A stretch of 64,000 nt of DNA, taken from the NCBI GenBank assembly GCA_964621395.1, contig CAZULS010000001.1, positions 615 to 64,614 of the forward strand, given 5' to 3'. The notes beneath the pieces were generated by a model. The model was given only the letters and a program-made list of their open reading frames with translations. It did no database searches and had not been told where the DNA came from. Both the position numbers and the translations under genes were made by a program. How positions within the stretch are numbered: position 1 is the first letter of the stretch; each line of letters starts with the position of its first letter. Shown piece after piece: positions 9,441 to 49,950 of the stretch. This DNA comes from an uncultured Candidatus Saccharibacteria bacterium. Lineage in GTDB: Bacteria > Patescibacteriota > Minisyncoccia > Phycocordibacterales > JACNGX01.

Positions 9441-12400
9441 TTACCTCAAAGCGAAGCGCACCGTCTCATTCTCACCAAGTACCGCTTCCGTCGCGTCTTC
9501 AATTTCTTTCTCAAACACGATATTTCTGAGCGATGCTGTTTTCTGAATCATATCTTTGTATTCAGCGATGAGCGACTCAGCGATTGAATCAGCGGAAACA
9601 GCGAGTGTTACCACATCATCCGGCGATAGCCCCTTTGCTTTACGTGCATCTTGAATTGCACGCAAGAGTTCACGCACTTCCCCTTCGCGACGCAGATCAT
9701 CCGTGAGTTCTAAATCGAGACCTGTTCCATTCTCCGTCTTCGATTCGTCCACCACAATTTTCTTCACATTCACTTCATCTTTGATAAGTGCGGCATATCG
9801 CTCGTCGGAGACATACTCGCCCTTCTCGGCAACAAAAAGTGTCGAAAGCGGCTGGCGCACCTTCACCCCTTCGCGCTTGCGCACCAGAAGAGCGGAAGAC
9901 ACCACAGCGCGCACCTTTTCCATCGCGACAATCACCTCCTTTTCTTTCTTCCCCTCTTTCATCTCAATCCAGCTCTCCAAATGCACACTCTCTTTCTTTC
10001 CACCTGTGCGTCCGTACACACGCTCAGAAACAAACGGCGTAAAGGGTGCAAGGAGTATTGCCGTGGCACGAAGCACTTCTCCAAGTACTGCACGCGCCTC
10101 GCGTGCGTCGTTCCCCTCACCTTTCATACGCTCTCTGCTTCGACGCACATACCACGTGGAAAGATCATCCAGAAAGCCAACAAACGGTCTCGTCGCACGG
10201 TCGAGTTCATATGCATCCAAAGCTCGCGTCACATCACGCGACACCTCTCCAAGTCGCGCGAGAATCCATTGATCAAGCACGTTCTTGGGCGCGCCGCCTC
10301 CCGTGGCGCGTCCTTCTTGTCCTTCTTGCCCGGCGGTCCCTCGACCGCTTAGGGCCTCTCCCTTTGGGACGACAAGTTCATAGAAGGCCACCACATTCTC
10401 CAGTCGCGCAATAATTTTTTTATACACCTCATCAACACCCTTCTCGGAAAAGCGAAGTTCTTCACCGCGCACCGCCGGCGAATTCAAGAGATAGAAGCGA
10501 ATGGCATCGGCGCCATAGCGATCCGCCAGATTCATTGGATCAGGATAATTTTTCAGCTTCTTACTCATCTTCTTCCCATCTTCCGCCAAAATCAAACCGT
10601 TCACAATCACGTGGCGGTACGGCGACTCATCAAAAAGCCCGACGCCAAGCATAAGTAAGGTATAAAACCAACCGCGTGTTTGATCCAGTCCTTCAGCAAT
10701 AAAGTCTGCCGGAAAATATTTCTTGAATGATTCTTTCCCTTTCGCCGGATATCCAAATTGTGCAAACGGCATCGCACCGGATTCAAACCAGCAGTCAAAC
10801 ACATCGGGGATACGTGTGTAGGCAGTACCGTCTTTTTCAATTTCCACCTCATCAATATACGGACGATGCACATCAAGCTCGTACTCGGCATTGTGCGGCA
10901 AGGGCACAAAATCCAGCTTTCGATATGTGCCGGTAGATATAAAATCACCTTCTTGCTGTGCATATATCTCAACGATTTCATCTACCGTTCTCCCTTCTGC
11001 ACCTTCAAAGAGCATGCGCGTTGCACCATCATGCGTGACAAAAAGAACGTTTTTCCCCTCATATGTTTCCTCGCATCCATACAACACCTCACTGACTCGA
11101 CGCTTCACATCGACATTACTCTCCCCTTTCGGACGCGGCTTTGTCATCCATTCATGAGCGTTTGTAAAATGCTCATCATCAACACTAACCGGCTTCCCTT
11201 CAAAATCACCAAAGTCATGCTCGCGAATTCCTTCCTCAATAACAATTGCGTCTTCCGGAAATCCGAGACCTTCGGCAACAAGCTTAGCAGTCTCACGCGT
11301 ACGCACCAAGGGCGATGCGATAATCACATCCGGCATGAAGCCTTCTTTCTTCATTCTTTCCACCGCCTCTGTAATTTCTTCTTTTCCTTTCTCTGTTACA
11401 TGATGTTCGTTCTCCGGAAGACCGGAATAAATTCCTGCCACATTACTCTCCGCTTCACCATGACGCATCACTACATAGGTATTGCCGGCAGTCTTTGTAT
11501 ACTTTTTCAATGTTGCCACACTATCAACCACCAATCGCTCACCCCTCTCATTCTCCCACACAGGCAAGGGAGCCCCCCAGAAACGCTGACGAGAAAAATT
11601 CCAGTCCGGCGCACCTTCAAGGAGATTTGCAAAACGCGCCGAGCCAATCTTCTCCGGCACCCAGCCAATCTTTTTATTTTTCTTCAGCGCACGGTCCTTG
11701 AGCTTTTGAATATCAATAAACCACGCCTCTGTCGCATAATTCAGAAGTGGTGTATCACAACGCCAACAATGCGGATACGGGTGTTCATACTTTTCTTTCG
11801 CAAAAAAGGCGTTGTGTTCTTGCAGATACTTGATCACTGCAATATCGGTTGCAAGACGCTCTTTCTCATCATCACTTCTTGGCTTCACCGCCATACCGGA
11901 AAGCACCTCCACCGTATCCTTCACGATGCCCGTATCATCCACATGCTGCACAAACGGCAGATTATGTTTCTTCCCAAGTGTAAGATCGTCTTCACCAAAC
12001 GCCGGCGCAATGTGCACAATACCGGTTCCGTCTTCGGTTGTCACAAAATCACCCGCATAGATTTTCCATCCGTTTTCACGGTGTTCAAGATTCTCGTCGT
12101 CAGCGTAGTATGGGAAGAGTGGCTTATATGCTTTACCCACAAGCTCTCCTCCCTTCATCTCTCCCTCGACATCATATTCCTTTATACCTGCCTTCTCGAA
12201 CACATCTCCCACCCTCTCTTTGGCAACGATATATCGCGCACCACTCGCAAGGACAATCACATACTCAATATCCTCTCCCACAGCCAAAGCCACATTGCCC
12301 GGCAGTGTCCACGGCGTGGTAGTCCACGCGAGAACGTAAGTTCTCGTGTGCCCCGCGGAGCCTTGGCGGAGTAGGGCATCTCCATCTTCCCCACCATCAT

Positions 12401-13142
12401 CAACCAATTCAAACTTCGCAATCACCGACAAGTCCTTCACGTCCTTGTACCCTTGCGACACCTCATTATTCGAAAGCGTTGTCTCACATCGCGGGCAGAT
12501 ATGCATAGAACGATATCCTTTCGTGATGAGTCCCTTTTTATCGAGCTCAGAAAACGCCCACCATACCGATTCGGTGTATGAGGTATCCATCGTTTTATAC
12601 GCATGATCCATGTCGATAAATCGTCCCATGCGCGGCACGGTTCGCTTCCATTCCTCGTCGTAGCGCATCACACTTCCGCGCGCGCGTTCATTGAATTTCC
12701 CGATGCCATATTTCTCAACATCTTTTTTGTTTTCCAATTCGAGCTCTTCTTCAATCAACACCTCCACCGGCAATCCATGACAATCCCATCCCCATTGCCT
12801 GCGGACATGATTTCCCTGCATTGTTTTGTATCGCGGAATTGCATCCTTCATCGTCCCGGCCAAGAGATGACCATAGTGCGGTGTACCGGTCGCAAATGGA
12901 GGTCCATCATAAAACACAAACTCCTTGCCGCCCTCTGTCGCCTCAAGCGTGCGCTCAAAAATACGTTGCTGTCTCCAGAGCGCAAGTGTTTCTTCTTCTT
13001 TACGCGCAACGTCGGAGAGGGTGCGGTTCCCCTCCATGGCCTTGGCGACGGAGGGTGTCTCCTTTGTTGTATCTGCGTGAGAGGACATCTCATCTCCTTT
13101 TCCACAACCGGGAGAACATGTTTTTGGCACAGACTGACTCAT
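9441..13142 (-). CDS. ileS: Isoleucine--tRNA ligase carrying an inserted histidine-phosphatase (PGAM-type) domain
   Basis: HYGH (PHYGHLLAG) and KMSKS (KMSKKL) motifs. The C-terminal tRNA-binding region is present. About 190 aa between PDWNFSRQRFWGAPLPVWE and RIPDVFDCWFESG carry RHGEAESN...RTRETA...EHDFGDFEG...VTHDGATR. Confidence 0.9.
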   Translation of the reverse strand: MSQSVPKTCSPGCGKGDEMSSHADTTKETPSVAKAMEGNRTLSDVARKEEETLALWRQQRIFERTLEATEGGKEFVFYDGPPFATGTPHYGHLLAGTMKDAIPRYKTMQGNHVRRQWGWDCHGLPVEVLIEEELELENKKDVEKYGIGKFNERARGSVMRYDEEWKRTVPRMGRFIDMDHAYKTMDTSYTESVWWAFSELDKKGLITKGYRSMHICPRCETTLSNNEVSQGYKDVKDLSVIAKFELVDDGGEDGDALLRQGSAGHTRTYVLAWTTTPWTLPGNVALAVGEDIEYVIVLASGARYIVAKERVGDVFEKAGIKEYDVEGEMKGGELVGKAYKPLFPYYADDENLEHRENGWKIYAGDFVTTEDGTGIVHIAPAFGEDDLTLGKKHNLPFVQHVDDTGIVKDTVEVLSGMAVKPRSDDEKERLATDIAVIKYLQEHNAFFAKEKYEHPYPHCWRCDTPLLNYATEAWFIDIQKLKDRALKKNKKIGWVPEKIGSARFANLLEGAPDWNFSRQRFWGAPLPVWENERGERLVVDSVATLKKYTKTAGNTYVVMRHGEAESNVAGIYSGLPENEHHVTEKGKEEITEAVERMKKEGFMPDVIIASPLVRTRETAKLVAEGLGFPEDAIVIEEGIREHDFGDFEGKPVSVDDEHFTNAHEWMTKPRPKGESNVDVKRRVSEVLYGCEETYEGKNVLFVTHDGATRMLFEGAEGRTVDEIVEIYAQQEGDFISTGTYRKLDFVPLPHNAEYELDVHRPYIDEVEIEKDGTAYTRIPDVFDCWFESGAMPFAQFGYPAKGKESFKKYFPADFIAEGLDQTRGWFYTLLMLGVGLFDESPYRHVIVNGLILAEDGKKMSKKLKNYPDPMNLADRYGADAIRFYLLNSPAVRGEELRFSEKGVDEVYKKIIARLENVVAFYELVVPKGEALSGRGTAGQEGQEGRATGGGAPKNVLDQWILARLGEVSRDVTRALDAYELDRATRPFVGFLDDLSTWYVRRSRERMKGEGNDAREARAVLGEVLRATAILLAPFTPFVSERVYGRTGGKKESVHLESWIEMKEGKKEKEVIVAMEKVRAVVSSALLVRKREGVKVRQPLSTLFVAEKGEYVSDERYAALIKDEVNVKKIVVDESKTENGTGLDLELTDDLRREGEVRELLRAIQDARKAKGLSPDDVVTLAVSADSIAESLIAEYKDMIQKTASLRNIVFEKEIEDATEAVLGENETVRFALR

Positions 13143-35404: not shown

Positions 35405-35719
35405 TTACACCACACTTTTTCCGTTCTCAAGAGGACGGTCCTTTCGGAGCATAATTCGAAAATCGCCCAGGGCACCCTCCGCATCATGTTCCATATACGA
35501 CACATCTTCCACATTCGCCCATGGCGGACCTTTTTGCATATCCTTAAGAAGGATGGCGAACTTGTTCTTCTCCCCTTCTGCAATAAAGCCGACTGTGCCG
35601 TCGGCATTGTTCCACACACGCCCGACAATACCATATTTGGAAGCTTTTCGTCGGACAAAATCTCGAAACATCACGCCCTGTACCTTCCCCAACACAATTC
35701 CTTCATATCGCTTTCGCAT
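35405..35719 (-). CDS. acyP: Acylphosphatase
   Basis: VQGVMFRDFV motif. 104 aa. Confidence 0.85.
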   Translation of the reverse strand: MRKRYEGIVLGKVQGVMFRDFVRRKASKYGIVGRVWNNADGTVGFIAEGEKNKFAILLKDMQKGPPWANVEDVSYMEHDAEGALGDFRIMLRKDRPLENGKSVV

Positions 35720-35823
35720 TGCACAATCATAGCATAGTTAGCTTATAGCTTATAGCTTTTGGCTTATAGGAAATTCAAAATTATTGCAAAAAAGAAGGAT
35801 ATGCTGTATAGTATTTCTCACGC

Positions 35824-35897
35824 GGGCGATTAGCTCAGTTGGCTAGAGCAATCCGTTTACACCGGAAAGGTCGGGGGTTCAAGTCCCTCATCGCCCA
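35824..35897 (+). tRNA. tRNA-Val (anticodon UAC)
   Basis: GGGCGAUUAGCUCAGUUGGCUAGAGC-A-AUCCG-UUUACAC-CGGAA..GGGGGUUCAAGUCCCUCAUCGCCCA. Terminator hairpin at 35900-35943. Confidence 0.85.
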
Positions 35898-35943
35898 CAA
35901 ATACACGAGCGCGGAGCATGACTCCGCGCTCGTTTTGTATTTG

Positions 35944-36152
35944 TGTGGCGATGAGGGACTTGAAGAGAGCTGTGCGCGAAGCCCGACAAGATTTATCTTG
36001 TCGGAGCACGGCGACGGGGTCGCGAGTTCTTAGTAAATTGCGAATACTTGGAGCAATATACTTAGAACTGGTGACCAAGTCCCTCATCAAAAAAATCCCG
36101 AAGCATGCCTTCGGGACCTTTGATTTTGTAGGACGATGAGGGACTTGAAAGC
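35944..36152. repeat. Inverted and direct partial copies of the tRNA-Val 3' end (tgtggcgatgagggacttgaa; caagtccctcatc; gacgatgagggacttgaaagc)
   Basis: Fragments at 35944-35964 (inverted), 36070-36088 (direct) and 36132-36152 (inverted), all downstream of the tRNA-Val gene. Confidence 0.7.
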
Positions 36153-36230
36153 CGCAGGCCGCGAAGCCGATTCCGACTTTCGGAGGAATCGAGGCCGAGG
36201 CGGGGTGAGAAAGCGAATGCCTGGAACTTT

Positions 36231-36306
36231 CGCAAGGTCTTTTGAGATATATTGAAAGGCTTTGCTTGAACAATATATCCAAAAGGTGTACTGCTCCTGT
36301 AAGGAG
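36231..36306. repeat. Copy A of a conserved ~75-nt module (..ttgagatatattg-aaaggctttgcttgaa-caatatatcc..ggtgtactgctcctgtaaggagg)
   Basis: Homologous copies at 48315-48393 and 48155-48228. The stem sequence differs between copies but the base pairing is retained. Confidence 0.7.
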
Positions 36307-36431
36307 GCAACACTTTGCGGATTATGAGCTTTAGCGAAATAATACGCTTAGTGATTCGTGATCGAGTCCATTACACTTACCTTCAATTTCCCCATGTATG
36401 GTATCTGAAAAATTTTTGATATAATTGTGGT

Positions 36432-37271
36432 ATGAGTGGGACAAACGTAAAAAAAGCAAACAACCCTCACAACTTGCCACTGGATAGTGTTTTGTTAGGT
36501 GACAATGTCGAAGTACTTAAAACGCTTCCTGATAATTCTATTGATCTCGTGGTTACAAGTCCGCCATATGATTCTGTACGTGATTACAAAGGGAAGCCAG
36601 AATTTGATCTGCACGCAACAGGTGAACAAATAGCCCGTGTGCTCAAGGAAGGAGGTGTTGCAGTGATGGTGATTCAAGATCAAACTAAGGACTTTGCAAA
36701 AAGTTTGACCTCATTTCGTACTATTGTTGACTGGGTGGACAATATCGGCTTACGGCTGTTTGAAACAGTAATCTATAGAAAACATGGCACTGAAGGCGCG
36801 TGGTGGAAGTATAGATTTCGCGTTGACCATGAATACATGCCAATTTTCCTCAAAGGAGCACGTCCACAATATTTCGACAAGGAACCACTAAAGATTCCAT
36901 CGAAACATGGTGGGAAGGTAATGACAGGGAGTGGAAACCGAAAAACTGATGGTTCAACAACAAAAACAGTCACGCGTCCTATCAATCCAATGAAGTGCAG
37001 GGGCACAGTATGGGATTATCTAATGGCAGGCGACAAAGACCCGCTCAAACGAAAACATCCAGCCGTTTTCCCAGACCAGATTCCCTTTGACATGATCCAA
37101 TGCTTCTGCCCCCCAGACGGCGTGGTACTAGATCCATTTGGAGGTTGCGGATCTACAGCAGTCGCCGCAAAACAGCTCGGCAGGAACTACATCGTAATAG
37201 ATGTAGCAGAAGAATATTGCAAACTGGCAGAACAAAGAATTTCCACTGTCCCAATACCTTTGTTTAGTTAA
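36432..37271 (+). CDS. DNA methyltransferase (beta-class amino-MTase, N4-cytosine/N6-adenine; DPPY motif)
   Basis: DLVVTSPPYDSVRDYKG catalytic motif and C-terminal FxGxG SAM motif (VLDPFGGCGSTAVAA). Convergent with, and overlapping by 8 nt, the candidate endonuclease gene. Confidence 0.85.
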   Translation: MSGTNVKKANNPHNLPLDSVLLGDNVEVLKTLPDNSIDLVVTSPPYDSVRDYKGKPEFDLHATGEQIARVLKEGGVAVMVIQDQTKDFAKSLTSFRTIVDWVDNIGLRLFETVIYRKHGTEGAWWKYRFRVDHEYMPIFLKGARPQYFDKEPLKIPSKHGGKVMTGSGNRKTDGSTTKTVTRPINPMKCRGTVWDYLMAGDKDPLKRKHPAVFPDQIPFDMIQCFCPPDGVVLDPFGGCGSTAVAAKQLGRNYIVIDVAEEYCKLAEQRISTVPIPLFS

Positions 37272-38316
37272 ATCTGCCTGGCTCCTCAATCGTATACTCA
37301 ATGTTGGTGCCGCTTGTCATTGCCATAGATAGCGGCTCCCTGTCCATCAGAGCAGTATAGGTGCCGTTGTTAAGTGTCGTTGCCGAAAAGTCGCCCTTGG
37401 AGAAGGTCTCGAGTCGGAACCCATCCCATGTCCAATTCTCTCGAACGTAGGGTATTCCAACATGTGTACTCATACTTGAAATGAACCCTTCAATACGCTC
37501 ACGCTCATTTTCATGTAAGTCGTACGTGTGACCACGCTGTACAAGATTGATCGGCAAACCACGCGGGTTAGATAACTTGAGCTGATGTCCAGACCTTTTG
37601 TTACGTCCGCCAGATTGATACTCGGCGCCATTGTAATAACCCTTTGCATTATATGTATCACGTAGTCGTAAAAAGGTATCCAGTCCTTCCATGATTTCAT
37701 AAAAACTGTGCTCGCTGGTACAAAAATGCTGATTCAAAATGTGTGCCGGATTGTCTATTTGCAGGTACTTGATCCAGTCCAAACAATTCTCTGTATAACC
37801 AAACAAATTGTTCCATACGCCATCCGCAAAAAGAAGCGGCCAGATTGCCTGTGGTGACAAGTTTGTGACAATGCCAGCGTGATGGAGAATACCCAGATAT
37901 AGATGAATTGCCCCAAATGGATATTTCCTCTGAAAATCTTTTTTACCATCAAAGCCGCGGAAGATGTTTGGCTGGATGCAATTATCGTAATGATAGTGTT
38001 GGTGAGTGATGCGGTTATTGTAGGTAACTAAGTGATTACCTAAACTTGGCACATTTGCCCTGTTTATTTCGACATCCAAAAATATACAGTCGTTTACCGA
38101 TAAACCATCTTTAATCACCAATACCTTGCCGTCGTAGTATCCCGCAACTTTTGCTCCCAAACAATGAGTGGCGAACAATCCACACAAAAAACCATCACTA
38201 TCAGGACCAAGCACTATATTCCTATCTCGTTCTATGATCCAAGGAAAAATATCAATCACTTTCTGATAGTCAAGAATTTCTCGTCCATCTTGTGTTTGTG
38301 TGTTTACATCAAACAT
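37264..38316 (-). CDS. Putative type II restriction endonuclease (cognate to the MTase; no family assignment)
   Basis: Position between the C-protein gene and the convergent MTase matches the classical PvuII/BamHI-like C-R/M layout. Start taken at MFDVNTQ (38316); the ORF track extends to 38370, overlapping the C gene. Confidence 0.5.
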   Translation of the reverse strand: MFDVNTQTQDGREILDYQKVIDIFPWIIERDRNIVLGPDSDGFLCGLFATHCLGAKVAGYYDGKVLVIKDGLSVNDCIFLDVEINRANVPSLGNHLVTYNNRITHQHYHYDNCIQPNIFRGFDGKKDFQRKYPFGAIHLYLGILHHAGIVTNLSPQAIWPLLFADGVWNNLFGYTENCLDWIKYLQIDNPAHILNQHFCTSEHSFYEIMEGLDTFLRLRDTYNAKGYYNGAEYQSGGRNKRSGHQLKLSNPRGLPINLVQRGHTYDLHENERERIEGFISSMSTHVGIPYVRENWTWDGFRLETFSKGDFSATTLNNGTYTALMDREPLSMAMTSGTNIEYTIEEPGRFN

Positions 38317-38317
38317 A

Positions 38318-38539
38318 CTACCGTGTGAAAAATGAAAGTTCTTTATTATATATCTTTGCAATCTCTTCAAGCTCTACAACATCAACTCTCCGTTCACCTC
38401 GTTCGATCTTTGATATGTAGGATTGAGGTCGTTTGAGTTTCTCTGACACCCCAACCTGAGTAAGTCCAGCTTCAAGACGAGCAGCTTTCAACTGCTCTAC
38501 AACCTTTTTATACTTATTAGAATACAGAGACCTGCTCAT
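38318..38539 (-). CDS. Controller (C) protein, XRE-family HTH, of the R-M system
   Basis: QLKAARLEAGLTQVGVSEKLKRPQSYISKIERGERRVDVVELEEIAKIY, typical of C.PvuII/C.BamHI-type regulators. Located immediately upstream of the endonuclease gene. Confidence 0.75.
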   Translation of the reverse strand: MSRSLYSNKYKKVVEQLKAARLEAGLTQVGVSEKLKRPQSYISKIERGERRVDVVELEEIAKIYNKELSFFTR

Positions 38540-39013: not shown

Positions 39014-39655
39014 ATGGCATCCGAACAATATTTGGCGAAATCTTTTGAGGAAGATTTTATACTCAAAACACTCAATGGGAAAGAAAAAGAACATTCCCAA
39101 ACAATTCAAAACATTCTGGAAACTCGCACGATACAGCCCAATACGTACAGCTTCGGACAAGAAAAAAGACTGGCATGCACATTCCTTCACGACAATTATC
39201 TGAAAACCTACCGTGCGCAAGGATTGATTTTTCAGACTCAACAAAAACCTGATTTCATTTATCCATTTGATATTGTCCTTCTTTCCGAAGCTGAAAAAAT
39301 AGTCGTGCAGTATTATAGAATTCAGCACCAACTGCATCTTCACTATAATCACGAATTGATTCCCGGTTTTGAACGATTTATTTTTGATGACATCCCCACT
39401 CTTTTGAAGAAATACCCAACGCAAGAAACACTCCTGGAAGACATTAATCGTTTTCGCATTGAGCATGGATACGGCGTTGTCCCCAAGCAAAAACGTAAGC
39501 TCATAGAGTACAACGAGGTCATCTTTCATGATCCCGTCGAAATCACTCCTATTGCTATCTTTGGATATCGATCAGCCGCACGAAAAATCGCCCGAGAATA
39601 CGGACTCCCTCATTTCACTTCTGCAAAGAAGTTTTATGAGTCTTTGGAGGGGTAG
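39014..39655 (+). CDS. Hypothetical protein (213 aa) in the R-M islet
   Basis: Start trimmed to MASEQYLAKS (ATG 39014), because the ORF-track start at 38909 would read through the 40-nt palindrome. No family motif recognised. Confidence 0.5.
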   Translation: MASEQYLAKSFEEDFILKTLNGKEKEHSQTIQNILETRTIQPNTYSFGQEKRLACTFLHDNYLKTYRAQGLIFQTQQKPDFIYPFDIVLLSEAEKIVVQYYRIQHQLHLHYNHELIPGFERFIFDDIPTLLKKYPTQETLLEDINRFRIEHGYGVVPKQKRKLIEYNEVIFHDPVEITPIAIFGYRSAARKIAREYGLPHFTSAKKFYESLEG

Positions 39656-39659
39656 GGGT

Positions 39660-39917
39660 TCGATTCCTGGCAGGGGCACTGATTCACAAAACACCACTCC
39701 CTTAAGGGAGCGGTGTTTTGCATCACGGCGCAAGCGCCGTAGAATCAGTGCCCCTGCCAGGAATGTCCCACAGTCACTAAGTAAAATACTTCGCCAAGGC
39801 TCGTATTTTACAAAGTGCTGCTGGACGCGGCTCGCGGTCTTCGCAGCAAGCTGCTCAGACATACTCCGCCGTTCGATTCCTGACGCGAGCCAAGCAGTTG
39901 GCTCGCTGCAGGGGCAC
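39660..39917. repeat. Array of partial tRNA-Arg(UCU) 3'-end copies and nested hairpins
   Basis: ggttcgattcctggcaggggcac (39662-39684). gtgcccctgccaggaat (39749-39765). gttcgattcctg-[acgcgagccaagcagttggctcgctg]-caggggcac (39871-39917). Followed by a 21-bp hairpin that closes onto the tRNA gene. Confidence 0.7.
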
Positions 39918-39950
39918 AAATGAAAAAGCCCTTCCGGACTTTTTCATTTG

Positions 39951-40022
39951 TGCCCCTGCCAGGAATCGAACCTGGAATGGGAGATTAGAAGTCTCCAGTT
40001 ATATCCGTTTAACTACAGGGGC
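39951..40022 (-). tRNA. tRNA-Arg (anticodon UCU)
   Basis: Minus-strand GCCCCUGUAGUUAAACGGAUAUAACUGGAGA-CUUCUAA-UCUCC..CAGGUUCGAUUCCUGGCAGGGGCA. Confidence 0.85.
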
Positions 40023-47877: not shown

Positions 47878-47976
47878 GACCCGATTCTATCATGTTAGAG
47901 AGCTCATCGCATTGTCTTCCTGGAAAACAGTTGCCCCGATACGTATTTCGTTCTATAGTAGTGCATACATAATTAG

Positions 47977-48063
47977 GGAGAGGTGGCAGAGTGGTCGATT
48001 GCACCGGTCTTGAAAACCGGAGTGCGGGAAACCGTACCGAGGGTTCGAATCCCTCCCTCTCCG
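47977..48063 (+). tRNA. tRNA-Ser (anticodon UGA), long variable arm
   Basis: GGAGAGGUGGCAGAGUGGUCGAUUGC-ACCGG-UCUUGAAA-ACCGG-variable arm-GAGGGUUCGAAUCCCUCCCUCUCCG. Confidence 0.85.
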
Positions 48064-48540
48064 CATTTGAAAATCCCGCCCATTTAGGCGGTGATTTTCT
48101 TATGCGGAGAGGAGGAAGCCAACTGCTTGGCTTTCGTGAGGGATTCGAAAAGGTTCTCCCATATTTTTGAGGAGCTTTGCTCCGAAAAAATGGGAAACCT
48201 GCACTGCTCCTGTAAGGAGAGAATCCCTCCCTCTCCGCAGTGAACGAAGTGAATAAGGCGGTGGAGGGATTCGAACCCGTAGGGGGTCGGGGTGAGGAGC
48301 GAATACGTGGAGCTCCGCAAGACCTTTTGAGATATATTGGAGAGCTTTGCTCGAACAATATATCCATAAAGGTGTACTGTTCCTGTAAGGAAGGCGGAAC
48401 GCCCCCGTGGAGGAGGCAACGCGGAACCGTGGGTTCCGCGAGCGCAGTCCAGCCCTACTTTTTCAAAAGTAGGGCTGGACGAGCAGTGAGCATTCCCTCC
48501 CTCTCCGCATAAATAATGAGTCAGGTGCGTGTCCACATCC
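48064..48540. repeat. Array of tRNA-Ser 3'-end fragments (direct and inverted) interleaved with two copies of the conserved ~75-nt module
   Basis: Inverted acceptor + agccaactgcttggct hairpin + inverted T-arm at 48103-48149. Modules at 48155-48228 and 48315-48393. ccctccctctccgca repeats at 48235-48249 and 48499-48513. Confidence 0.7.
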
Positions 48541-48571
48541 CTATTGGTATTTGATATAGTATACTAAACAT

Positions 48572-49057
48572 ATGGAAGAAAACGCTCTCAACGAACCATT
48601 CCAATGGACAGCGCCGGAATATCAGCAAAGAGCTCACACGCCTGATTGGTATTGGGGAGTCGGACTTACCGGTGCCGTGCTTGTTGCTGTCGGCATCATC
48701 ACAAACAATCCCTTCTTCTCAATCTTCATCGTCATTGCTGTTGCTTCCATTTTCTTTTTCCACGTCCGCACGCCGCACATTGTTGATTTCGGCGTCTCAC
48801 GCAAAGGAGTCCGTGTCGACAAGACACTCTACCCCTTCGCTACACTTGAGTCATTTTGGATTAGGGAGAATATTCTTGAAGAGAAAGAGCCGAAGCTCAT
48901 TTTGAAATCAAAAAAGATGGTTATGCCACTCGTCATTATCCCGCTTCCGGAAGGCGTTGATTTCGATGAACTGCAAGACTTCCTCGAACAATTCCTCTCC
49001 GAAGAAGAACACCCCGAGCAGCTCTCCGAGCAGATTATGGATCGGTTGGGATTCTAG
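48572..49057 (+). CDS. Hypothetical two-TM membrane protein
   Basis: TM segments (VGLTGAVLVAVGIITN, FSIFIVIAVASIFFF). Acidic C-terminus. Confidence 0.5.
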   Translation: MEENALNEPFQWTAPEYQQRAHTPDWYWGVGLTGAVLVAVGIITNNPFFSIFIVIAVASIFFFHVRTPHIVDFGVSRKGVRVDKTLYPFATLESFWIRENILEEKEPKLILKSKKMVMPLVIIPLPEGVDFDELQDFLEQFLSEEEHPEQLSEQIMDRLGF

Positions 49058-49145
49058 ATTTAGAAATAAGAAAAACCTAAAGCCCGACAAGCCGGGCTCG
49101 GTCACGGTAGAAATTAGAAAATAGAAAACACCCTTGCGGGCGTTT

Positions 49146-49721
49146 TTACGTTTTCAAAGAAAATCTTTTGTATTCTCGCCATTCTCCTTTTTCGTTTTGA
49201 ATAGCGAGGCAGACATTATCGATTTTAATCTCTCTTTCAAATGTCTTCCCCGAAAGATATTCTTTGGCTTTTTCATATCCATCTTCCGTCAAATCTTTAT
49301 ACGCAACAGTAATGTGAGGACTATAGGGTAGCGGCTGCTGGTACCACACCGCATACGAACTCGCGATGTTTTCTTCAAAAAATGTTGTTATTTCCCCGAG
49401 CCCTCCCAAATTGTATGGCTTGATGTACACAACAAAGGGACTCAATCCGAGCTTCGCACCTTGTGTCCAATCAGACATAAAAGAAAATGTTTGAGTCTCT
49501 ATGTGAAAAACAGGAACATTTTCTAGAAAGGCTTCTATTTCTTCATACAACTTTTCTAATTGTTCACCAGTAACTTCAACGCCCGAACCCACCGTAATAT
49601 GTGGTTCCCATACTTCCCACGCACCTTTTGAGTCGGTGATATCTGTTAATTCTTTCTGAATTTCCACAATTTCTTTGGCAATCTCTTTGGGGAAATACGA
49701 GACAATTGAGAATGTATACAT
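49146..49721 (-). CDS. 2H phosphoesterase superfamily protein (LigT/2'-5' RNA ligase-like)
   Basis: Two H-x-T-x motifs (HITVGSG and HITVAYK). Start trimmed to MYTFSIV, because the upstream ORF extension covers tRNA-derived repeats. Confidence 0.7.
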   Translation of the reverse strand: MYTFSIVSYFPKEIAKEIVEIQKELTDITDSKGAWEVWEPHITVGSGVEVTGEQLEKLYEEIEAFLENVPVFHIETQTFSFMSDWTQGAKLGLSPFVVYIKPYNLGGLGEITTFFEENIASSYAVWYQQPLPYSPHITVAYKDLTEDGYEKAKEYLSGKTFEREIKIDNVCLAIQNEKGEWREYKRFSLKT

Positions 49722-49790
49722 GGACCTATGGTAGCACATGTGTTGATTGGGAGGAATTGCCTCGGAACCACCTAAAGTAAGTCGCTGGAT

Positions 49791-49838
49791 GTCGATTCCT
49801 GACGCAAGGCAAGCAGTTGCCTTGCTCCGAGGGGACAC
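49791..49838. repeat. Inverted tRNA-Arg(GCG) 3'-end duplicate with inserted hairpin (gtcgattcctg-[acgcaaggcaagcagttgccttgct]-ccgaggggacac)
   Basis: Same architecture as 39871-39917 and 48103-48149. The insert is homologous (aaGCAGTTg core). Confidence 0.7.
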
Positions 49839-49878
49839 AGCAAAAAGGGCACCCACAGGTGCTCCTTTCTGCAATGTG

Positions 49879-49950
49879 TCCCCTCGGCAGGAATCGAACC
49901 TACATTACGAGCTCCGCAAGCTCGCGTCCTATCCGTTGAACGACGAGGGG
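49879..49950 (-). tRNA. tRNA-Arg (anticodon GCG)
   Basis: Minus-strand CCCCUCG-UC-GUUC-AACGGAUA-GGAC-G-CGAGC-UUGCGGA-GCUCG-UAAU-GUAGG-UUCGAUU-CCUGC-CGAGGGG-A. The anticodon loop places GCG at positions 34-36. Confidence 0.7.

Follow-up and report, generated by a model that had tools for sequence, protein, structure and literature searches.

The 64,000-nucleotide stretch of DNA analysed here (the window) comes from an uncultured Candidatus Saccharibacteria bacterium (contig CAZULS010000001.1, positions 615 to 64,614) and contains three copies of a short structured module beside repeats derived from tRNA genes. The module is the core of a conserved, covarying, strand-specific, multi-copy cassette that is restricted to the Patescibacteria; the core is constant, and the arms that flank it are local copies of the end of the adjacent gene. 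The family comprises small (~100–180 nt) non-coding cassettes built from hairpins, with many copies per genome. The reading that we tentatively prefer, with a little under even confidence, is that of a non-autonomous mobile cassette of the repeat type, the arms of which are made from the local tRNA gene.

All three copies proposed in the original prediction were checked in the sequence at their positions and are recovered by a covariance model, R1, which was seeded with 19 type-1 cores (18 foreign cores and copy C of the window). With filters off over the whole 64 kb, R1 gives exactly three significant matches, all on the + strand (copies A, B and C; Table 1); in the same scan the best match beyond them has an E value of 0.09 and there is no full-length match on the − strand. 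The 16-mer ACTGYTCCTGTAAGGA is also present exactly three times in the window (at 36290, 48203 and 48376, each on the + strand). Copies A and B, both of type 2, share 83% identity, and copy C, of type 1, is 90% identical to a copy in a Yonathbacteria genome (L010).

The core consists of a hairpin of ~50 nt (H2), an unpaired (G)UACUG linker and a small hairpin of 4–5 bp with a UGUAA loop (H3). H2 carries an internal G-A loop (GA/GA in type 1 and GA/GAA in type 2) and a GC-UUU-GC tip; the GCTTTGC segment that had been described as lying in a loop is this tip, a 2 bp GC/GC stem with a UUU loop above the internal GA loop. Three motifs are invariant and unpaired (UACUG, UGUAA and GCUUUGC), and the joining strands at the three-way junction of the predicted fold are GAAAAG, GUACUG and (C)GA. 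The conserved unit exceeds the ~75 nt first proposed: copies A and B share an upstream GGTGAG-hairpin-CGCAAG part and copy C lies inside a closed structure of 137 nt. The GGTGAG and the upstream hairpin (H0) are found in at least 12 further type-2 copies outside the window; in copy A, H0 has a GCGAA/TTCGC stem and an 11 nt loop and is the counterpart of a hairpin, H1, in the tRNA-clamped form.

Compensatory covariation supports these stems throughout the family. In a MAFFT alignment of 21 full units (H1, H2 and H3), 90% of the cells are paired and double changes occur at 22 of the 34 pairs; the covariation score is 0.487, compared with 0.171 ± 0.014 for shuffled and at most 0.166 for slid controls. 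Double changes affect all nine pairs of H1, the sequence of which varies freely while the hairpin is kept. A model-fitted alignment of 65 copies has 88.8% of its cells paired, compensatory changes at 24 of 25 pairs and a score of 0.458 (0.130 shuffled; at most 0.117 slid). The outer two pairs of H3, which were left free in the search patterns, occur as C-G, A-U, U-A and G-C with a single break in 96 cells, and H2 folds in 49 of 49 copies when each sequence is folded separately. RNAalifold on the plain MAFFT alignment of mixed types recovered H3 alone because H2 is misaligned in it. The substitutions preserve base pairs, not codons. The stem that had been noted to differ in sequence while retaining its pairing (gagatatattg/caatatatc in two copies and cccatattttt/aaaaaatggg in the third) is genuine, survives proper alignment and belongs to this family-wide covariation; the original proposal is supported in that the module is a conserved, structured single-stranded element. 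H2 is more stable on the + strand than on the other (−18.8 versus −15.6 kcal/mol; p = 1e-8), with 926 pairs including 40 G-U on the former and 881 including 23 G-U on the latter. The element acts as a single strand, either RNA or single-stranded DNA (ssDNA), in the sense of the tRNA.

Copies outside the window were collected by pattern and by model. When one genome per species was scanned with a two-part pattern, 11 loci were obtained, the eleventh of which looks like a chance match; the ten source genomes are metagenome-assembled genomes of Saccharibacteria, Paceibacterota, Azam- and Yonathbacteria and the Parcubacteria group, all of them Patescibacteria. A pattern scan of metagenomes gave at least 120 loci, with ~45 true copies among the matches listed. 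R1 finds at least 65 copies in 54 sources, including two or three copies at several of the fetched loci, so that the further copies expected by the original prediction do exist (counts out of 65 refer here and below to R1 copies among the matches listed). Phage, plasmid and viral collections held no matching copy, and no description of such an element was found in the literature. Scanned with Rfam at gathering thresholds, the whole window yields eight tRNAs alone. At E values of up to 10 over 35700–36450 and 47900–48600 the module has no match; a Whalefall-1 match of 18 bits (threshold 37) falls on an arm hairpin, outside the module.

These results bear on the suggestion of a self-cleaving ribozyme, a riboswitch or a translational leader with an AGGAGG signal. 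The conserved joining strands of a three-way junction (GAAAAG, GUACUG and CGA), a tandem G-A motif and the AGGAGG of copy A would all suit such a role. However, Rfam offers no ribozyme or riboswitch even at the permissive threshold, and no Shine–Dalgarno sequence is conserved: the Shine–Dalgarno-like aggagg is one version of a covarying H3 stem strand that reads GGTT, GGGT, GGAC, GGAT or GGCG in other versions. The copies also sit 3' of genes and tRNAs, not in 5' leaders. We regard this explanation as highly improbable.

In roughly half of the copies (33 of 65) a co-oriented tRNA gene lies no more than 450 nt upstream (no more than 135 nt in 27 of them), and 22 isoacceptors are represented. 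The antisense of the T loop (TYGAA) stands immediately before H2 in 42 of the 65 copies. A further form, with GCAAG and without tRNA arms, accounts for 19 of the 65; among those read in detail, some follow ribosomal protein genes or lie beside 5S rRNA. The proposed confinement of the module to the neighbourhood of tRNA-derived repeats thus holds within the window but fails for the family. In one metagenome contig (L048) a type-2 copy lies beside a 5S rRNA gene on the opposite strand, and a 21 nt direct duplicate of a 5S segment (TGTTCGGAATGA.AACAGGTG) precedes the copy and overlaps its GGTGAG head; here, local sequence has been copied at the border of the cassette.

Where arms are present, the antisense arm is the Watson–Crick complement of the 3' strand of the tRNA, with GAGGG where the 5' strand of the tRNA has GGGGG, and it includes the antisense of the T loop. 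A duplicated 5' half of the tRNA was considered as its source and is ruled out by the G-U pair (GAGGG versus GGGGG, in tRNA-Val and in tRNA-Arg(tcg) of L106) and by the continuation into T-loop antisense: the arm is not a copy of the 5' half because it complements the 3' strand and the T loop. The complementarity usually extends through the locus-specific trailer into the stem of the terminator, forming perfect palindromes with arms of up to ~25 nt. Because the palindrome includes this locus-specific sequence, and because the arm complements the 3' strand, the arms are taken to be local copies rather than inherited guides. H1 splits the antisense arm exactly opposite the junction of the acceptor and T stems (tRNA 65|66), with AG and CG(U) linkers, as judged by eye for the tRNA-Ser array of the window and for L006, L011 and L015. 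A sense copy of the tRNA 3' end can be recognised at the end of about half of the readable units with a split arm. When both kinds of arm were compared with the tRNA to see whether they decay differently, no clear pattern emerged; the sense arm is often degenerate. In the L027 copy the arms derive from the last 11–15 nt of the rplK coding sequence and not from a tRNA.

Other features of the copies resemble those of repeats or mobile elements. Cores that are ~90% identical adjoin different tRNAs in different source contigs, and in only three of 23 cases are copies of one locus each other's nearest relative; homogenisation of copies within a genome was not seen. The tRNA-Tyr(gta) genes of two Saccharibacteria genomes are followed by different cargos. 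The tRNA-Pro genes cgg and tgg have the 3' part of the T arm, the trailer, the terminator and the cassette in common, with a single base of difference over all of these. Tandem arrays occur, as do decayed and truncated copies, and at L023 H1-H2-H3 is bordered on both sides by a 73 nt direct repeat that takes in the sense arm, the trailer, the terminator and the first part of the antisense arm.

This last repeat, together with the forward–inverted–forward order of tRNA 3' ends and the position of the junctions at two natural palindromes, might be explained by passive tandem-inversion duplications that arise through template switching at the terminator hairpin and T arm and gather hairpins at their junctions, with neither mobility nor function. 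Such a by-product would leave unexplained why the same core and invariant motifs stand beside 22 isoacceptors in 65 copies from 54 sources, why covariation preserves H1, H2 and H3, and why arm-less copies occupy other intergenic regions. It is largely refuted because the core is conserved, and we consider it unlikely.

An empty site is available for comparison. In a relative of the window's organism (neighbouring protein 88% identical), the terminator of tRNA-Arg(gcg) comes immediately after the gene, without the arms, H1 or the LigT-like gene found behind this tRNA in the window, and R1 has no match over the 8.5 kb region of the relative. The window has ~790 extra bases at this point, consisting of a new terminator, an antisense arm with H1 and the LigT-like gene; the original terminator is kept at ~49125–49150. 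Short-read contigs of the window's strain and of the relative (L132, L133, L136 and L137) break off either within the cassette or within the tRNA-Ser T loop, and therefore the repeats break assemblies at tRNA genes. A look-up of the exact protein of a gene neighbouring the element in the window returned only contigs that break inside the element.

Turning to mechanism, we infer mobility, a copying process and an enzyme that is supplied in trans and recognises the hairpins. The core sequence would move from site to site, and copying at the DNA level, across the palindromes of the terminator hairpin and the T arm, would generate the arms from the target or re-homogenise them. In the expected product, the tRNA 3' end and its terminator would be followed by the antisense 3' end (with H1), then by the core and lastly by the sense 3' end. 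The enzyme in question would be one that recognises ssDNA hairpins. Read-through transcripts from the tRNA promoter may then fold the cassette into a closed five-helix structure; in the predicted read-through fold, the partner of the tRNA 5' half is the distal sense arm, and that of the proximal 3' end is the antisense arm. The topology is that of an insertion in the T loop that brings a replacement 3' end, and the tRNA gene therefore remains intact. The mobile-cassette reading, which would make the element similar in kind to REP/BIME, BOX or MITE-like structured repeats, fits the many sites, the arrays, the decayed copies, the swapping of cargos, the empty sites and the complementarity that runs as far as the trailer.

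Several points weigh against it. No transposition event, circular intermediate or enzyme was seen. Presence and absence were compared for a single pair of relatives, and the difference may stem from a deletion on the side of the relative. The ~90% identity of cores from Saccharibacteria to the Parcubacteria group, together with the invariant unpaired motifs, fits purifying selection on a functional RNA at least as well as horizontal spread. A blind copying mechanism would not predict the precision of H1, and mobility explains neither this exact placement nor why the core is so very highly conserved across distant contigs. Finally, G-U and A-C counts in the model-fitted alignment are 58 and 59 and do not distinguish the strands; because these counts are equal, the strand call rests on the per-sequence folds and the conserved G-A motif.

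The main alternative is a functional structured RNA, which is possible, although we do not think it probable. It would be a conserved protein-binding scaffold (H1, H2, GUACUG and H3) whose two variable arms base-pair to the 3' half of a specific tRNA, from the T loop to the acceptor end. It could be guide-like and bring a factor to the tRNA, its precursor or its gene; or a cargo RNA could be carried in a miniature tRNA mimic (acceptor helix, H1 for the D/anticodon domain, and T helix) and be trimmed or stabilised by tRNA-processing enzymes. Such an RNA would account better than mobility for the placement of H1 and the conservation of the core: the scaffold is conserved across distant contigs while the arms change with the neighbouring tRNA, and H1 is maintained by covariation and lies, in all loci checked by eye, at the same junction with linkers of 2–3 nt that mimic the strand path of a real tRNA. 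The invariant unpaired motifs, the strand-specific fold in the sense of the tRNA, the ability of the whole unit to fold by itself and the loci where a conserved purine-rich spacer replaces the terminator, implying co-transcription with the tRNA, are also in its favour. However, many copies are decayed, truncated or arm-less, the sense arm is often degenerate, and complementarity reaches into a non-conserved trailer and terminator that a tRNA guide would not need. The protein-coding origin of the L027 arms, the lack of a linked partner gene, the failure of the Rfam tRNA model to match the units at E values of up to 10 and the replacement of the T loop, which tRNA-processing enzymes read, argue in the same direction, as does the close relative, in which tRNA-Arg(gcg) has neither arms nor H1 and the matching 8.5 kb is free of cassettes.

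More specifically, the cassettes may be programmable RNAs, a proposal that we view as doubtful: a putative Patescibacteria protein would bind the scaffold, and the bipartite arm would pair with the T-loop-to-acceptor segment of one tRNA or tRNA gene in a tRNA-shaped three-way junction. They could be tRNA-specific guides that serve processing, modification, decay or repair, or they could provide the guide for an RNA-directed mobile element that targets tRNA genes; we know of neither kind in bacteria. The original prediction of the functional end of a tRNA-targeting cassette is upheld in that the module is physically part of tRNA-derived repeat units; targeting is unsupported, and the antisense arms are equally explicable as a by-product of DNA copying.

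The genes around the copies were surveyed for a partner. All-against-all BLAST of 418 open reading frames (ORFs) around copies revealed no recurrent protein family. Among ~40 ORFs of the window, Pfam identified no transposase, integrase, reverse transcriptase, tyrosine recombinase or Y1/RAYT domain, none of the ORFs overlapping the arrays matches a Pfam domain, and no full-length integrase element ending in the module was present among 139 loci. In the relative, a 536-residue large serine recombinase (Resolvase, Recombinase and Zn_ribbon_recom; L134, 2233–3843) abuts tRNA-Ser(tga), inverted with respect to the window; it belongs to a different mobile element.

The cassettes might alternatively be attL/attR leftovers of integrase-type islands or prophages at tRNA 3' ends, with the module as an arm-type protein-binding region. 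The direct repeats of the tRNA 3' end do begin in the T loop, the classical crossover region, and the serine recombinase of the relative lies beside a tRNA gene. Yet whole units measure only 140–180 nt and contain no gene, neither gene content nor an integrase lies between the repeats (in units of 140–270 nt), no integrase is nearby, and neither an antisense arm nor H1 is an att feature. Covarying stems indicate a single-stranded fold and not double-stranded protein sites, arms borne by an element could not be retargeted to 22 tRNAs with the core ~90% identical, and there is no phage, plasmid or viral match. We judge this origin very unlikely.

Within the window, arms are present at four of the eight tRNA genes (Table 1). 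The unit around copy C, taken alone, has a single-sequence minimum free energy of −72.1 kcal/mol and forms a closed structure of five helices (P1-H1-P_T-H2-H3). The tRNA-Ser and tRNA-Val arrays sit between the terminator of the tRNA and the promoter of the next gene, and in these two arrays, which were scanned for them, no internal promoter-like site is predicted. At several loci (48240–48258, + strand, and L054, L084 and L123), the interval from a tRNA 3' end or a sense arm to the antisense arm that follows holds a purine-rich spacer motif (GTGAACGAAGTGAA...) in place of a terminator, which implies that the cassette is co-transcribed with the tRNA there.

The tRNA-Val array carries a cargo, X, that recurs beside tRNA-Ser(gct) in L010, and a terminator-like hairpin (36096–36116) follows its first unit. 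The extra domain of its second unit is common to L061, and no sense arm was found after copy A. A hammerhead was also considered here and rejected: the tRNA-Val arms contain CGAUGAG...GAA because they are antisense to the 3' end of that tRNA, and the string does not occur at other tRNAs. The joining strands of the cassette junction also do not form a catalytic core of the hammerhead kind (CUGAUGA...GAAA...UH). A short tandem repeat, TAGCTTATAGCTTA, is present in two copies at 35739–35766 (+ strand), just 5' of the tRNA-Val promoter-like site. At tRNA-Arg(tct) the arms hold a different cargo, Y, within which R1 has a weak partial match to the GA-flanked tip (39837–39862). Nearby, at 39600–39678 (− strand), a second, uninterrupted antisense tRNA-Arg(tct) 3' end, TGCCCCTGCCAGGAATCGAACCCC, runs into the apparent antisense of a degenerate tRNA body, for which ARAGORN makes no call.

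Cargos X (35965–36075, + strand) and Y (39765–39871, − strand) represent two further conserved cargo families that take the same place between antisense and sense tRNA arms; with those of L010, L008 and L061 they have in common a ...GCGCGAAGCC-hairpin-GAG... segment, a GCGAAUAC.UGGAGC hairpin and a 3' ...ACUG..G.GAC segment. Rfam has no match to X at E values of up to 10 or to Y in the whole-window scan at gathering thresholds. Outside the window, the tRNA-Tyr arms of L008 hold an X-like cargo, and L138 has arms and H1 but no cargo at tRNA-Ser. Directly behind the antisense arm and H1 of tRNA-Arg(gcg) in the window lies a LigT or 2'-5' RNA ligase-like (2H phosphoesterase) gene (49146–49874, − strand), which may be a protein-coding cargo that uses the same entry point; no distal sense copy of the tRNA-Arg(gcg) 3' end, which would bound it as cargo, was found.

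Table 1. Copies of the module, their parts and the tRNA-anchored units in the window.
Feature	Position	Strand	Details
Copy A (type 2)	36231–36310	+	R1 45 bits, E 9.5e-8
Copy A, CGCAAG linker	36231–36236	+	
Copy A, H2	~36237–36287	+	Tip GGCTTTGCT
Copy A, GTACTG	36288–36293	+	
Copy A, H3	36294–36306	+	CTCC-TGTAA-GGAG; sequence and fold
Copy A, upstream part	36204–36232	+	GGTGAG 36204–36209; hairpin H0 36210–36232
Copy B (type 2)	48316–48396	+	R1 50 bits, E 7e-9
Copy B, CGCAAG	48316–48321	+	
Copy B, H2	48322–48373	+	
Copy B, GTACTG	48374–48379	+	
Copy B, H3	48380–48392	+	TTCC-TGTAA-GGAA
Copy B, upstream part	48291–48315	+	GGTGAG 48291–48296; H0 48297–48315
Copy C (type 1)	48145–48223	+	R1 102 bits, E 3.5e-20 (in seed, matches by construction); TCGAA tail (T-loop antisense)
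Copy C, H2	48151–48200	+	
Copy C, GCACTG	48201–48206	+	
Copy C, H3	48207–48219	+	
tRNA-Ser(tga), array anchor	47977–48064	+	ARAGORN, Rfam; promoter-like site 47931–47959; intrinsic terminator 48076–48091
Closed unit around copy C	48103–48239	+	Inverted and direct repeats
Copy C unit, antisense acceptor arm	48103–48112	+	TGCGGAGAGG; antisense of tRNA-Ser acceptor 3' strand
Copy C unit, H1	48115–48135	+	CTGC loop; AG before, CGU after
Copy C unit, antisense T-stem and T-loop arm	48138–48149	+	GAGGGATTCGAA
Copy C unit, sense arm	48221–48239	+	GAATCCCTCCCTCTCCGCA; perfect copy of tRNA 3' end, starts in T loop
Distal tRNA-Ser unit	48252–48509	+	Uninterrupted antisense tRNA-3'-end-like arm 48252–48278, then copy B
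Distal tRNA-Ser unit, 3' part	48420–48509	+	Hairpins 48420–48440 and 48447–48480; third sense tRNA-Ser 3'-end copy 48491–48509
tRNA-Val(tac), anchor of copy A array	35824–35898	+	ARAGORN, Rfam; terminator 35905–35933
First tRNA-Val unit	35944–36088	+	Antisense arm GGCGATGAGGGACTTGAA 35947–35964; cargo X 35965–36075; partial sense arm CAAGTCCCTCATC 36076–36088
Second tRNA-Val unit, start	36131–36203	+	Antisense arm GGACGATGAGGGACTTGAA 36131–36149; extra domain GCAGGCCGCGAAGCC-hairpin-GAGGCCGAGGC leading to copy A
tRNA-Arg(tct) unit, cargo Y	39749–39917	−	3' of tRNA-Arg(tct) 39950–40022 (−)
tRNA-Arg(tct) unit, antisense acceptor arm	39917–39908	−	
tRNA-Arg(tct) unit, H1	39907–39884	−	CTGC loop
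tRNA-Arg(tct) unit, antisense T arm	39883–39872	−	
tRNA-Arg(tct) unit, sense arm	39764–39749	−	
tRNA-Arg(gcg) arms and H1	49792–49837	−	No core, no sense arm; 3' of tRNA-Arg(gcg) 49878–49950 (−)
tRNA-Arg(gcg), antisense acceptor arm	49837–49827	−	
tRNA-Arg(gcg), H1	49826–49803	−	
tRNA-Arg(gcg), antisense T arm	49802–49792	−	

Other genes of the window were also recorded. An N6/N4 DNA methylase gene (36432–37271, + strand) follows directly after the tRNA-Val array and converges with a 368-residue ORF without a Pfam match (37264–38370, − strand), with which it may form a restriction–modification pair. At 9441–13142 (− strand) a 1233-residue class I aminoacyl-tRNA synthetase (tRNA-synt_1 and Anticodon_1) has a histidine-phosphatase domain (His_Phos_1) inserted midway through its catalytic domain.

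By analogy, the behaviour of the cassette is closest to that of REP/BIME-type repeats and of folded single-strand recombination sites such as attC and CTX-phi attP. We place it among the structured non-coding repeat cassettes, and only in this broad kind, because the defining features of each system compared fail where they can be tested. Like REP/BIME (which is mobilised by RAYT, a Y1 HUH transposase), BOX, Correia and ERIC, it is short, non-coding, multi-copy and mosaic or modular; it has imperfect hairpins with conserved unpaired bases on one strand, lies after genes near terminators, and its enzyme, if any, is encoded elsewhere in the genome. Unlike REP/BIME, it has no GTAG-type head and no RAYT gene in the sequence examined, and none of these four repeat families has arms in both orientations copied from the adjacent gene or is tied to tRNA 3' ends. 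Miniature inverted-repeat transposable elements have element-specific terminal inverted repeats and a target-site duplication, whereas the arms here differ from locus to locus, matching the 3' end of the adjacent tRNA, and type-2 copies are armless.

The resemblance to attC and CTX-phi attP(+) lies in arrays of small promoter-less cassettes separated by imperfect palindromes of 60–110 nt, in which structure is kept over sequence. As in such sites, a hairpin stem reproduces the target duplex and one arm is asymmetric (through H1 here and through extrahelical bases in attC). In contrast to attC, the palindromes copy the anchor tRNA and are not sites borne by the cassette; they have ends GAATCC.../...GGATTCGAA from the T loop, and the GTTRRRY consensus of R'/R'' is missing (GTTCGAA and GTTCAAG do not fit it). 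The cassette also lacks a linked IntI or Xer gene, and it carries structured RNAs of ~75–110 nt in place of ORFs, with LigT as a possible exception.

The logic of a scaffold with target-complementary segments resembles, again by analogy, the guide RNAs of mobile elements, and the outcome resembles that of tRNA-integrating islands. The IS110 bridge RNA or seekRNA, the exon-binding sites of group II introns and the omega-RNA of TnpB likewise combine a folded scaffold with variable segments complementary to the flanks and a guide split by a hairpin. However, no recombinase, reverse transcriptase or nuclease gene is adjacent to the cassette, a sense copy of the target is present in cis, and the complementarity, ~20 nt plus the trailer, is far longer. 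Whereas the IS110 bridge RNA has two guide loops, for target and donor, the cassette has a single bipartite arm, both halves of which pair with one strand. As with islands and prophages integrated at tRNA genes, the tRNA is kept intact by a replacement 3' end and the displaced end remains on the 3' side as a direct repeat that begins in the T loop; unlike them, the cassette is ~100 times smaller, has no integrase, adds an inverted copy with H1 and places the same core at 22 isoacceptors. Finally, an acceptor plus T-stem helix closes a foreign RNA, and a side hairpin replaces the D/anticodon domain, as in the tRNA-like domain of tmRNA, the mascRNA of MALAT1, the tRNA–miRNA units of gammaherpesviruses and engineered tRNA scaffolds. 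In the cassette, by contrast, a T loop is lacking (it is paired, and the cargo takes its place) and the helix covers the discriminator base and the trailer; ARAGORN and the Rfam tRNA model do not recognise the units and call only the eight genuine tRNAs of the window.

The Patescibacteria make up a large share of bacterial diversity, and to our knowledge almost nothing is known of their non-coding RNAs and small mobile elements. The family described here is widespread among them and is missed by annotation pipelines because it is absent from Rfam. Its design, a structured core clamped by antisense and sense tRNA 3' ends with a hairpin placed exactly at the junction of the acceptor and T stems, is one for which we found no precedent. 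If the cassette is selfish, it would represent a new way to colonise tRNA genes without an element-borne integrase; should the arms be functional, the cassette would be a naturally occurring, re-targetable RNA with the ability to recognise individual tRNAs.

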